Part shown: piece by piece, positions 5,129 through 64,000 of the stretch
How positions within the stretch are numbered: the first letter of the stretch is position 1
How the letters are laid out: every line of letters starts with the position of its first letter
Assembly (NCBI GenBank): GCA_023231475.1
Contig: JALJEE010001321.1
Coordinates: 1 to 64,000, forward strand
Origin: Seison nebaliae
Taxonomy: Eukaryota
DNA length: 64,000 nucleotides
Reading direction: 5' to 3'
Notes under the pieces: model-generated
What the model was told of the DNA's origin: nothing
Databases searched by the model: none
The model's input: the letters and a program-made list of their open reading frames with translations, nothing else
Position numbers and translations under genes: made by a program

Positions 5129-6367
5129 ATGGCAACGGAAATTGAACAGTTGAGACAAGAGGCGGAAGTCCTCAAGAATCAAATTCGAGTTCAATACATT
5201 TTTTTCTTTCCACTTTCTCTACTTTCTTCCATTGTCAGGATGCAAGAAAGGCAGCATGTGATACGAATTTATTGCAAGTCGCTCAAAATGTGGAACAAGT
5301 GGGCAGAATACAAATGCGAACTAGACGAACATTACGTGGACATCTCGCCAAAATTTATGCAATGCATTGGGGATCCGATCCATTGTTAATTTTCATTCAT
5401 TTCTTCTCATTTAATTTTAATTTCTCTCATTTCGTAGAAGTAGTCGTAATTTAGTGTCAGCTTCACAAGATGGCAAATTGATAGTGTGGGATTCGTACAC
5501 CACGAATAAGATCCATGCAATTCCATTACGTTCGAGTTGGGTGATGACGTGTGCTTATGCACCAAGCGGCTCATTTGTCGCCTGTGGCGGTCTAGATAAT
5601 ATTTGTTCGATCTATTCACTCAAGACGAGAGAGGGCAATGTTCGTGTGAGTCGTGAATTACCCGGCCACACTGGCTATTTATCATGTTGTCGATTTTTGA
5701 ATGATAATCAAATTATAACATCATCTGGTGATATGACATGGTATGTGATTTTCTTCCATAATTTCCAACTCTCTCTTTCCTTTCTAGTGCATTGTGGGAT
5801 ATCGAGACAGGACAACAGACAACAAGTTTCACCGGTCATACAGGTGACGTCATGTCGTTATCATTAGCGCCCGATATGCGAACATTCGTATCTGGTGCGT
5901 GTGATGCATCGGCGAAATTGTGGGACATACGTGACGGAATGTGTCGACAGACTTTCCCCGGACACGAGAGCGATATTAACGCGGTGACATTCTTCCCGAA
6001 TGGATACGCTTTCGCCACCGGCAGTGATGATGCCACATGTCGATTATTCGACATCAGAGCTGATCAGGAAATCGGAATGTATTCACATGATAACATCATT
6101 TGTGGAATTACCAGTGTCGCATTCTCGAAGAGCGGAAGATTGCTGTTAGCCGGATATGACGACTTCAACTGTAATGTCTGGGATTCGTTGAGATTAGAGA
6201 GAGCCGGTTGGTGAATTTCTAATATTCTCTCTATCTCATCATTCTTCTCTTCTTCTAAAGGTGTCCTTGCTGGTCATGATAATCGAGTTAGCTGTCTCGG
6301 TGTAACGGAAGACGGTATGGCTGTCGCCACCGGGTCATGGGATAGTTTCCTCCGCATTTGGAACTGA
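5129..6367 (+). CDS. GNB1: Heterotrimeric G protein beta subunit (GNB1-4 class), 5 exons; introns 5189-5238, 5385-5437 (tandem acceptors), 5741-5787, 6207-6260
   Basis: Spliced product [28 protein letters not shown]...[15 protein letters not shown]...[12 protein letters not shown]...[31 protein letters not shown] closely matches animal G-beta (7 WD40 repeats). The paralog number is nominal. Confidence 0.96.
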
Positions 6368-6975
6368 AGTGCGCTTGTACAAAAAACTAAAATATTCAAA
6401 CAAGAAATTTGAGGTTGAAAATATTCAAAGAAAAATTGATTTTTATTTTCTTGAAAACATTTCAAATTATTTATTATCTATCATTAATGTCATCTGCATC
6501 ATCATCTTCTTCATCCACATTATTATTATTAACCTTTTCTCTCATCTTTCATTCAACTATTAATTATTATTTTCCTATTTATTTCCAACTATCCAATAAT
6601 GACAATTGATGCATCGGACCTCTTCATCATCATCATCATCATCATCATCTTAATTATCATCATCACAACTATCTGTCTCTTTTACAATTTGGACATAATT
6701 CCTATTCATCTACGAGTTACGAGAACAACAAAAGACAATAAGAGTAACGGAAAACGAAAATTTCCAATTTCATCCGTCGTCCTCGATGCACTACCACCAA
6801 ACCAATTCTAATCGTTTGTTCCAAATAATCAAAGAACAAATTCTCTCAATTCGTTTTGATGAAATTGAAAGCAATGTTTTGAGAATGAACATCCATCGGA
6901 TCTGTAGAAGATGATCTAGAAATTAATCCATCTAACATCATATAATCCAAATTTCATATCAACACAATCTACACG

Positions 6976-7008
6976 ACACACACACACACACACACACACA
7001 CACACACA
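6976..7008. repeat. (CA)n microsatellite downstream of G-beta
   Basis: Read directly. Confidence 0.9.
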
Positions 7009-7382
7009 GCCCACACGAATCTAATGGATATTGCTCATCGTTAAATGATAAAATTTTATTATTTTTTCTTTTCTCTCAAACGAAACACTTCATATTCCAA
7101 TTCATATGATTGCCATTATCCTCCACCATCTCCATCTATTCTCCATCTGTCTCCACGATTGTCGACGGTATGTGGAAGGATGTGGAAATCATCTCCAAAA
7201 TTTCATGATATTCCTCTCCTCTCATTCGCGACAACCGTCTCTATTTCCAACCAAACATCCTTAATGATCTGATGAGGAGAATGCTCCTTCCTTTCCACCA
7301 AAACACACCAAATCATTAATTTATGATCGAGATTAGAAACTTCCTCTTCAACATTCTCATTCAACTACAATTGCGCACTCAA

Positions 7383-7431
7383 ACACATATACACATATAT
7401 ACACACACACACACACACACACACATACACA
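7383..7431. repeat. Interrupted (CA)n microsatellite
   Basis: Read directly. Confidence 0.85.
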
Positions 7432-61218: not shown

Positions 61219-63035
61219 GATGTTCGATCGCCCTTGAAATAAGGAAAGTGAAATATATTAGAATTGTGGTTAATCTGCAATTGAATTGAAATTTGGTTTT
61301 GGGAAAGAATAGGAATTGTCGTTAAAATGTTTTCATGGGAAATTGTAATTTCTCAATCGATTAATCGAAAATCATCAAAACCAATCATCATATGTATGGT
61401 AAATGTGAAATGAGGAAAATGGGAATTTTGACTGGAACGAATATGAGTTGAATTCGAGAGAACATTTCAAAAAACTGAATTGCATGATTAATTAGATAAA
61501 GTTTGGATAATGTCACATTTATATATAATATATTATTAATATATATATATATATATATCCCTCCGTCATATTGATGGTAGAATAGAAGAAGGTTTTTTCT
61601 TTGTTACCTGTCGTGCTATCATCGATGGAATAAGGTGGAAGAAGTGAAGGAGATTGAGGAGATTGGATAAAGAAAAAAGAAATGGTGGAAGGTGCAAGAA
61701 AATGAGAAAGAAAAAGTATGAGAAATATTTTCGATGAAATTGTCTGACAATATATGCGCAAACTTCTCAATAGGTTAGATGGGTAAAGTTGAAATGTAAA
61801 AGGAAGAATAGAAGAAATGATTTTCTCTGTTTTCCACTAACCAACAACTGAAGTCGAAAGAAGAATGTCGATTCATTTGTTTCGTTCTGCTAATCTATAA
61901 TTGTTTAAAGGAATATATCATACTTTCTTGTATTGTTATGGTAGATGGAATTTTTCTCTATAAAAAATAAATTAAAAGAGAATCGTAAACAATCGTCGAC
62001 GAGGAGAGTTGTCGGACCCGGCTAGTTGTTCGCATTATAGAGAAAGAAACTTTCATAAAACTCTATTTTTATGTCACATTAAATAAGATGATGAGGAGAA
62101 TTAAATGGGGAGTTATTGGAGGGGAGGGGAGAAGTGTTGCAGATTCAGTATTTCATGAAGTAGATCCATTTTCGCGATTATTGCCTCCATTCCTCCCCGT
62201 TCCATATAATCATCTCTTCATTAAATACTTTTATTAACTTTCCAACACAGAGAATTTGGAAGTTTCAATGTCTACAACCCAATTTCATTCATTTTAAGCA
62301 CAATTCTTTCAAATTTCTTTCAAATTTCTTTCTTTCTTCCCATTCTTTCTTCCCATTCTTCTAACAACTCTCAATTGTCAGGAAACGATATTGTTGGTCG
62401 AAGTGAGTAGTGAGACTAGAGTGGGAGGTAGTCAAATTGTAAAATTAATTCTTTCCTTTCACTCCCCAACTAGTTGATGCTGTTGCTAACAAATTCTTAT
62501 TATTCAAGATCAAAGAATTAATTAGAAATTTTGTTGGAAGGAAGTTGGACTGCTTCAATTTAAGGTGGATTTCTTCAAATTTTCTTATTCAATTCACTTC
62601 CTTCCTTTATCCATATCGTCCCATTGTCCATTTCACTTCAACGCAAATCGAACAAATAAACTACTTCCACTTCATTTACATATTCCTCCCAAACTTATTA
62701 TTAATCGAATCGAACATTCCAATCATTCATATTCGAAAGTTTTAAATTGAAATTTGAAATCTTTATTTGAGACACCAAAAAAATTATTTTATCATTTATC
62801 AGATGGGAACATATATTTCACGTAGAAATTCATTTGAGTAGAATTATGTTTAGAGTAGAGAATTGATTGAGATGAAAATAGATTAAATTCGATTTCGATG
62901 AAATAGTTTAATAAGGCCACATCGAATGAATGATAAAGGAAAAAAAATTGAATTAGAAATTTATTTTACTCTTTTCCATTTTAGTTAACGAACGTTTCCC
63001 CCCACTTTCATTTCAGTTTTTACGAAAGGGAAGGA

Positions 63036-63464
63036 ATGTATAAAATTATCGATCTGTTACCGCCAAACTACGGATATGTGTTGTTGACCGCTCATTGTAG
63101 TGTGTTGATTACGATGTGGACTGGTATCAATTTATGTCGAGCTCGAAAGAAGTATGCCATTACAGCCATGGCCGTTTATAGTGATAAGAGTATGATGTTC
63201 AACTGTTTTATGCGAGCTCATCAAAGTATGCTAGAGATGTATCCATTCTTCCTCTATATGCATCTAATAGGTGGTCTAGTTTATCCCATCAGCATGAGTA
63301 TTAGCGGACTTATCTTTCAATTGGGACGGATCGCTTATGCTCTAGGCTATTATACAGGTGAACCGAATAATCGATTTTGGGGAAGTTTCGGAACTATCAG
63401 TTATTTCCTTTATATCAGTTGGTTCGTATGGATGACACTTCACGACATAATGAAAGTTTGTTAG
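63036..63464 (+). CDS. MGST3: Microsomal glutathione S-transferase 3-like (MAPEG family), intronless
   Basis: YGYVLL, RARKKY, FNCxxRAHQxxLExYP and GRIAYALGYYTGEP..R..G motifs. Confidence 0.88.
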   Translation: MYKIIDLLPPNYGYVLLTAHCSVLITMWTGINLCRARKKYAITAMAVYSDKSMMFNCFMRAHQSMLEMYPFFLYMHLIGGLVYPISMSISGLIFQLGRIAYALGYYTGEPNNRFWGSFGTISYFLYISWFVWMTLHDIMKVC

Positions 63465-63634
63465 CGAAAATAAAGAGTGGGAAAGAAATATTAAAAATTA
63501 AGATTTTTATTTATATGATGTGTTAAAAATTGATCAATTATCAATATTCTAAATGACTAATAAATTCAAATTATCTCAATTCTCTATTATTCGGAAAAGC
63601 AAAAAAAAAAGAAAAGATAAAATTAAGCGAAAAA

Positions 63635-64000
63635 TTAGAGTTGTAGTTTCACCACCGTTCCCTCTCGTTTGATGACATGATCTATCGTCTTTGGCACCAT
63701 TTTGATGCAATCGATAATCGGACAAACTGAAGAACATAATGTACATCCTGAAAAGAAGAATTTTAAGTTAATTACGAATTAATAAAACAAAAAAAATTGT
63801 ACGGAAAAAAAAACCTGTACAATCATTGTTGACCGTTGGAATATGAGTGACGGGATCGAAATTGATAGCTTGATATCCTGAGTCGTTACAAGCCATATAA
63901 CACTTTCCACAATTGATGCACATTTCCTGAATTTGAAAAATAGAATTTTGAAAAATTGAAATTTCAACTTCATCAATTAGTGCCACAACTTGTTTCGTGT
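63635..64000 (-). CDS. DPYD: 3' end (last three exons) of dihydropyrimidine dehydrogenase, C-terminal 4Fe-4S domain; runs off the window
   Basis: [63 protein letters not shown]...LQL*. Confidence 0.93.

Follow-up and report, generated by a model that had tools for sequence, protein, structure and literature searches.

In a 64-kb stretch of the genome of the rotifer Seison nebaliae (hereafter the window) the 5' splice sites, or donors, of introns in protein-coding genes are dominated by the trinucleotide GTT. The six conserved genes contain 38 introns, of which 35 begin with GTT, two with GTC and one with GTA (Wilson interval for GTT 0.79-0.97), and ten introns placed by reading frame alone in three further genes add nine GTT and one GTA, so that the tally for all placed introns is 44 GTT, two GTA, two GTC and no GTG out of 48. 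The usual donor start is GTA or GTG, i.e. with a purine at the third intronic position (+3). An earlier sequence-only reading of this DNA had counted 45, 2, 2 and 0 among 49 introns, and our re-placement of the junctions bears out that picture. Judged from the sequence, the dominance of GTT donors in these 64 kb is confirmed as genuine. It is likely that the splicing machinery of Seison nebaliae has been retuned for such donors, and the leading, albeit unproven, mechanism is a change of nucleotide 6 of the U1 small nuclear RNA (snRNA) to A, to which we assign a probability of roughly one half.

The preference at +3 departs strongly from what composition would give. T occupies this position in 35 of the 38 conserved-gene introns (92%), as against a T fraction of 0.50 in the bodies of short introns (p=3.6e-8), which is the comparison with intronic background by which the sequence-only reading was to be judged. 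A purine is present at only 1/38 sites, a significant depletion (p=1.1e-5), the GTR start that is typical, though not obligatory, for U2-type introns being nearly absent here. Moreover, U is favored over C beyond composition, with just two C among 37 pyrimidines (p=0.001). Window-wide, 38% of the 5,797 GT words continue with T, and the unused GT words in the vicinity of the donors comprise 16 GTG, 16 GTT, 13 GTC and 7 GTA. Of the 23 unused GTR words among these, seven equal or surpass the used site in their pairing with canonical U1, two of them surpassing it, which is weak evidence. All 48 intron models, placed without RNA, have GT..AG termini.

Around +3 the donor reads roughly (A/C)A(G/A)|GTT with a residual +5G. 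Enrichment over background is seen for -2A (22/38, p=0.0017), -1G (16/38, p=0.0027) and +5G (10/38, p=5e-6); +4 and +6 are at background (+4T 17/38, p=0.8). The information content relative to background is accordingly 0.63 bit at +3, 0.43 at +5, 0.28 at -2, 0.25 at -1 and 0.02 at both +4 and +6. No anticorrelation of -1G and +5G was detected in the 38 sites (p=1.0), a sample of low power. The normal donor register is hence retained, with a single position, +3, inverted. The bodies of short introns consist of 50% T, 27% A, 18.5% C and 4.5% G, and 43 of the 48 introns are 42-67 nucleotides (nt) long (mean 48.8 nt). The acceptor is YAG in 33/36 introns checked and follows a pyrimidine-rich stretch, with T at -5 in 26/38. 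A YTRAY branch-point motif near the 3' end occurs in 22/48 introns versus 18.5 in shuffled sequence (p=0.18), three frame-only introns being one base off. None of the listed donors matches the U12-type motif, RTATCCTT.

The narrow length range, the T-rich and G-poor bodies and the uninformative +4 and +6 could also be read as a decay of donor recognition to a bare GT plus intron length, with the +3T merely the first base of the intron body. We consider this very unlikely: the T share drops from 92% at +3 to 45%, 32%, 50% and 58% at +4 to +7, unused GT words nearby show no comparable bias, and the four long introns of conserved genes likewise all begin with GTT. Definition by length, which the sequence-only reading had offered as one explanation, is plausible as a helper, but it cannot explain why +3 should be U.

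Intron-bearing genes and junction placement

The window is AT-rich animal DNA with a GC content of 34%. Its origin is supported by its largest reading frame, that of DNAH2, which is 100% identical to SNEBB_009845 of Seison nebaliae, the next database matches being at about 60% identity, and by a second gene matching the deposited protein SNEBB_009851. The genes of Seison, a seisonid rotifer of epizoic habit, are compact according to the accessible text of PMC8351084. Introns were called in these 64 kb from protein homology and reading frame by four routes: the deposited DNAH2 protein (P0001) was mapped exactly onto the DNA; frame-keeping GT/GC..AG alternatives within 45 nt were scored against 12 non-Seison DNAH2 homologue segments; a custom spliced aligner, with no +3 term in its scoring, was given non-Seison proteins only; and a codon-model (ab initio) gene finder, likewise devoid of a +3 term, recovered most introns. 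The introns of YJU2B and DPYD were placed by frame together with continuity of Pfam and PDB matches. The genes and their introns are as follows.

5129..6367, + strand: G-protein beta gene (Pfam WD40_Gbeta; 5 homologues and 3 bdelloid-like mRNAs); introns 5189-5238 GTT, 5385-5437 GTT, 5741-5787 GTA (ATG|GTATGT), 6207-6260 GTT
14568..30308, + strand: DNAH2 gene (P0001); 20 introns, all GTT..AG; donors 1-10 at 14600, 15280, 15489, 15982, 17163, 18878, 19086 (466 nt), 19675, 23659, 23795; donors 11-20 at 23969, 24167, 24382, 24734, 24916 (651 nt), 25707, 29012, 29255, 29509, 30105
30372..31434, - strand: YJU2B/CCDC130 (Saf4/Yju2) gene; introns 31431-31387 GTT, 31249-31198 GTT
31815..32929, + strand: NECAP-like gene (Pfam PF07933; spliced alignment of homologues); introns 31901-31950 GTT, 32157-32205 GTC, 32288-32335 GTT, 32427-32477 GTT (soft), 32566-32612 GTT
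59492..61218, - strand: EF-hand nicotinamidase gene (model identical to deposited P0241); introns 61186-61029 GTT (158 nt), 60898-60455 GTT (444 nt), 60157-60104 GTT, 59974-59929 GTC, 59616-59567 GTT
63635..63998, - strand: 3' end of DPYD (placed by frame and by similarity to DPYD chains of solved structure); introns 63968-63927 GTT, 63814-63748 GTT
12018..13448, - strand: orphan gene; frame-only introns 13100-13055, 12574-12516, 12339-12290, 12119-12068, all GTT (soft)
33276..42419, - strand: orphan gene with a 9-kb exon, gene start uncertain; one frame-only intron 42169-42071, GTA (soft)
44039..47188, - strand: transmembrane gene with immunoglobulin (Ig) domains in successive exons and an open 970-codon frame; frame-only introns 46809-46764, 46300-46255, 46105-46063, 45285-45227, 45106-45064, all GTT

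The evidence is most extensive for DNAH2. Mapping of P0001 returns what the sequence-only reading had stated for this gene, namely 20 GTT donors, of which five have +5G; its long introns of 651 nt (GTTAGA, in DNAH2) and 158 nt (GTTAGT, in the nicotinamidase gene) are likewise recovered. When alternatives were scored against the 12 non-Seison segments the GTT junction ranked first in 18/20 introns; 13/20 have no frame-keeping GTA/GTG..AG alternative within 45 nt, and in six of the remaining seven that alternative is 11-115 points worse. In whole-gene spliced alignments 16/16 non-Seison queries recover these same 18 GTT donors. The two softer sites both lie in weakly conserved flanks: at 14600, short of which the whole-gene alignment stops, a GC alternative scores +2.0, and at 29255 a GTG alternative scores +4.7, the whole-gene alignment favoring a GTC at 29259. 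The choice by the ab initio model of GTG at 25716 over GTT at 25707 was dropped, as it is contradicted by 16/16 homologues; antisense models from the same run were spurious and also discarded.

The other conserved genes concur. The G-beta donors are identical with 5/5 homologue proteins and 3/3 bdelloid-like mRNAs. Every nicotinamidase donor (four GTT and one GTC) is picked by 10-16 of 16 non-Seison homologues. For NECAP, 56 homologues passed a length filter and the 20 with the best scores were used; support is 20/20 for GTT 31901 and for GTC 32157, 16/20 for GTT 32288 and 13/20 for GTT 32566; GTT 32427 is soft, with 11/20 homologues versus 8/20 for a GTA at 32441. In YJU2B the PF04502 profile runs continuously across the frame (1-27, then 26-266). 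For the orphan at 12018..13448, which has no Pfam match, the ab initio model yields an open frame of 407 codons.

These placements bear on whether the bias could be an artefact of junction choice, or the footprint of a wave of transposon-derived introns sharing a GTT end. The junctions come from homology and reading frame, and the aligners admit only GT/GC..AG. When every dinucleotide is permitted, GT..AG comes within 2 points of the best junction in 16/20 DNAH2 introns, and at the other four a non-canonical cut is more than 2 points better. Nonetheless, separate placements agree across DNAH2, G-beta, nicotinamidase and NECAP, and the DNAH2 alternatives are mostly nonexistent or far worse. As for introner signs, flanking duplications are of just 0-2 nt in 42/48 introns, and the first 20 shared 12-mers are low-complexity A/T words, each found in two introns. 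Three G-beta introns coincide in position with introns of human GNB1, which also speaks against this explanation. We hence regard this explanation as highly improbable.

Reading of +3 by the splicing machinery

The human U1 structure provides a framework for interpreting a U at +3: there +3 pairs with pseudouridine 6, site selection depends chiefly on base pairing, the bases are not contacted by U1-C, and a +3U forms a U-U mismatch that is partly stabilized by U1-C (Kondo et al. 2015, PMC4383343, in the accessible text). Therefore canonical U1 should tolerate +3U rather than prefer it. The observed ranking at +3, where U greatly exceeds C, A and G, is the one expected from an A opposite this position. 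An A at nucleotide 6 of U1 would restore a Watson-Crick pair with +3U in the normal register, such that U1 would pair with -2 to +3, plus +5 where this is G. The purine-rich exon end would probably be held by loop 1 of U5, the U6 ACAGA helix would likely be weak at most introns, and the narrow length range and G-poor body would likely supply the remaining specificity via intron definition. With A at nucleotide 6 the mean number of Watson-Crick pairs to the U1 5' end rises from 4.9 to 5.8, a gain that follows from the motif and is not independent of it, and a second change at nucleotide 5 adds just 0.2 mean pairs. The sole firm GTA donor, at 5741 in G-beta, is otherwise near consensus (ATG|GTATGT), which is suggestive of a need to compensate a mismatch with such a U1, albeit at one site. 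Taken further, we tentatively entertain, at somewhat less than even odds, the view that in Seison the U1:5'-splice-site code has been rewritten, which would be a first among animals: nucleotide 6, which is a conserved pseudouridine in yeast through human, would have become A, and thousands of inherited GTR introns would have turned into GTT introns while the donors of this intron-rich genome otherwise stayed degenerate. Of the rewired donor code proposed by the sequence-only reading, what stands is that +3 is specifically U, that purines are nearly excluded and that a weak motif persists in the normal register; the mechanisms proposed with it are hypothetical, and the reading is thus supported in part.

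A canonical U1 could also accommodate the fixed U in a shifted or bulged register, with +3U pairing with A7 of U1 and no snRNA change. Roca and Krainer reportedly described shifted U1 registers at human sites in 2009. The -2A and -1G enrichment is compatible with a bulged form. However, the marks of a shifted register are unenriched, namely -2C (p=0.34), -1A (p=0.39), +4R (p=0.41), +5A (p=0.45), +6G (2/38, p=0.52) and +7T (p=0.21), and it is +5G that is enriched instead. Human sites with such registers exist (PMC4856993, accessible part), and those that are GUU sites also start with GTT, but Seison does not show a displacement of the downstream consensus by one base. The odds of this reading appear very small indeed.

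We sought the U1 gene itself. No Rfam family, and hence no snRNA gene, is found in the window. U1 patterns in viral contigs yielded 0 and 8 loci, none of the eight passing Rfam, and in prokaryote genome contigs six loci, one of them a real U1. The latter (RF00003, 143.8 bits) is on contig L003 (positions 1-158, - strand), which belongs to a bacterial metagenome-assembled genome; as it bears a eukaryotic U1 snRNA gene, this contig is a contaminant. Aligned to L003, a U1-like contig is present, one per run, in 4/4 DNA runs (X1-X4) that hold the window. It spans U1 nucleotides -2 to 116 (L003:43-160) with 18 differing letters and 2 gaps, including three listed changes in the 3' arm of stem-loop 1, G to U at nucleotide 34 in the U1-70K loop and a missing nucleotide 13, and its loose end is a Sm-site-like AAUUUUUG on the U1 strand. 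Its depth, which is not copy number, is 15.2 in X2 versus 15.5-15.8 for the window, and 5.4 in X1 versus 7.2-9.0 (about two thirds). The contig likely belongs to Seison itself. Its presence argues against a loss of U1 of the kind known from Cyanidioschyzon (PMC10158995, accessible part), and is compatible with a compensatory change. A further run, guessed to be RNA, behaves as DNA: its contigs, like those of X2, span introns, and no listed joint corresponds to an intron.

Several observations weigh against a changed U1. Of the 18 differences of the U1-like contig nine are listed, all of them more than about 30 letters away from the piece ends and hence outside nucleotides 5 and 6, and the nine unlisted ones fit either no or one change at the 5' end and are thus uninformative. 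That the contig comes from Seison is likely rather than certain, and the junctions are known from homology and frame. The donors in use include two that start with GTC and at least one firm GTA. In most lineages whose donors have changed U1 stayed canonical, as in yeasts, Giardia, Micromonas and Thecamonas (bioRxiv 10.1101/2022.06.08.495308, accessible part) and in an animal, Fritillaria borealis (PMC13326754, accessible part). Finally, a near-invariant +3 beside degenerate +4 to +6 is unlike the degenerate pattern, with positions compensating for one another, that U1 pairing should give, and could reflect a later checkpoint, which a single such position would suit.

Such a checkpoint, with U6 or Prp8 rather than an altered U1 reading +3, is possible though on balance unlikely. 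In the standard spliceosome +3 meets G44 of U6 weakly (PMC11732430, accessible text), the splice code of F. borealis changed with unchanged snRNA sequences and altered N6-methyladenosine (PMC13326754), and the alignment of the U1-like contig takes in the 5' end. Against this, an unchanged G44 would favor C over U, the reverse of what is seen; the known effects of METTL16 and SNRNP27 concern +4 (PMC11732430), which is here at background; and Entamoeba, with +3U, retained the ACAGA box and changed its U1 (bioRxiv 10.1101/2022.06.08.495308). The change at U1 nucleotide 6 remains our leading reading. If it is correct, an snRNA and a large set of introns can change together in an animal; if U1 is canonical, a hitherto unrecognized reader of +3 is exposed.

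Comparison with known splice codes

The one published +3U lineage that we found is Entamoeba, which carries a compensatory U1: its donors are GUUUGU(U), with U at +3 and +4, the co-evolved U1 reads AACAAAC (changed to ACAAAC), the U6 ACAGA box is kept and GUUUGN is found in 97-98.5% of its introns, which are few (Roy & Bowser, bioRxiv 10.1101/2022.06.08.495308; this and the likenesses below concern the accessible parts of the sources). Seison shares with it the near-invariant +3U (35/38; 44/48), GT-AG introns and an AT-rich genome, but its +4 and +6 do not differ from background, G is found at +5 in 26%, and GTTTGT occurs solely at donor 17163. Further, the host is an animal with 20 introns in DNAH2 alone, and the U1 change reported for Entamoeba is unread in Seison. 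Seison thus resembles the Entamoeba system at +3 and is not a member of it, having neither +4U nor the strict hexamer.

With standard U2-type GT-AG introns (the AG//GUNNN, U5 loop 1 class; PMC11732430) Seison shares the GT..AG ends, mostly YAG acceptors, and the -2A, -1G and +5G enrichment; unlike them it has U in place of the +3 purine and shows no -1G/+5G anticorrelation, the latter from 38 sites of low power. Fritillaria borealis, in which 95% of introns escape GT/AG, the U1 and U6 sequences are unchanged and U2AF is duplicated (PMC13326754), is likewise an animal lineage with altered splice signals; its change is genome-wide, whereas that of Seison is known from 64 kb, keeps GT/AG and inverts +3 alone.

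Between yeast and human the U1 5' end is said not to vary (PMC4383343), and reported compensatory U1 changes are confined to amoebozoans (bioRxiv 10.1101/2022.06.08.495308), both according to the accessible text. Donors dominated by GTT are not described for Seison, other rotifers or any other animal in the literature that we covered, which is incomplete and includes few subscription papers, figures or supplements. The accessible text of PMC3464624, PMC11347168, PMC10639083, PMC10599564, PMC1557818, PMC10125929 and PMC10158995 contains no rotifer +3 data, and PMC7310846 makes no mention of intron or splice. To this extent the statement of the sequence-only reading that so extreme a GTT bias is not known from an animal holds; it missed the Entamoeba precedent (+3/+4 U, U1 ACAAAC; bioRxiv 10.1101/2022.06.08.495308).

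Among the relatives of Seison, a bdelloid G-beta query retrieved 80 metagenome loci, of which 78 are intronless in the aligned part (the three bdelloid-like mRNAs among them) and two non-rotifer loci have one GTA intron each; scans of viral contigs for donors of sister taxa gave no loci. With bdelloids, monogononts and acanthocephalans as relatives the transition should be datable. In Seison nebaliae, donors may be misplaced by gene finders whose training assumed GTRAGT.

Other observations in the window

Some further features of these genes deserve mention. In G-beta a short insertion follows WGSD (5370-5450, + strand), which the bdelloid-like mRNAs (L015-L017) share in kind. At 17717-17909 (+ strand) DNAH2 has an in-frame stretch of about 20-27 codons missing from homologues, where 16/16 alignments cut an intron at one of three places (GTT, GC or GTT); the stretch may be either inserted sequence or an intron that lacks stops and has escaped annotation. 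At nicotinamidase donor 60898 (- strand) the frame-keeping AAG|GTTATT beats a near-consensus AGA|GTAAGG 5 nt upstream (60903) in 15/16 homologues. Perfect GTAAGT and GTGAGT words lie within introns 25707-25753 (+ strand) and 31431-31387 (- strand), too close to the 3' end to serve as donors.

The 9-kb exon at 33276-42071 (- strand) is an orphan frame of 2,931 codons in a single exon; its product is rich in N, S, D and K, contains SDDxKSIxK repeats and matches no Pfam family. Just upstream of DNAH2 a short repeat (13995-14086) is covered to very high depth by both X1 and X2. The window also contains intronless genes on the + strand, namely MTO1/GidA, a tandem of mitochondrial ribosomal L16 and L14, and a member of the MAPEG family (10072-12021, 58026-58757, 58758-59276 and 63036-63464).

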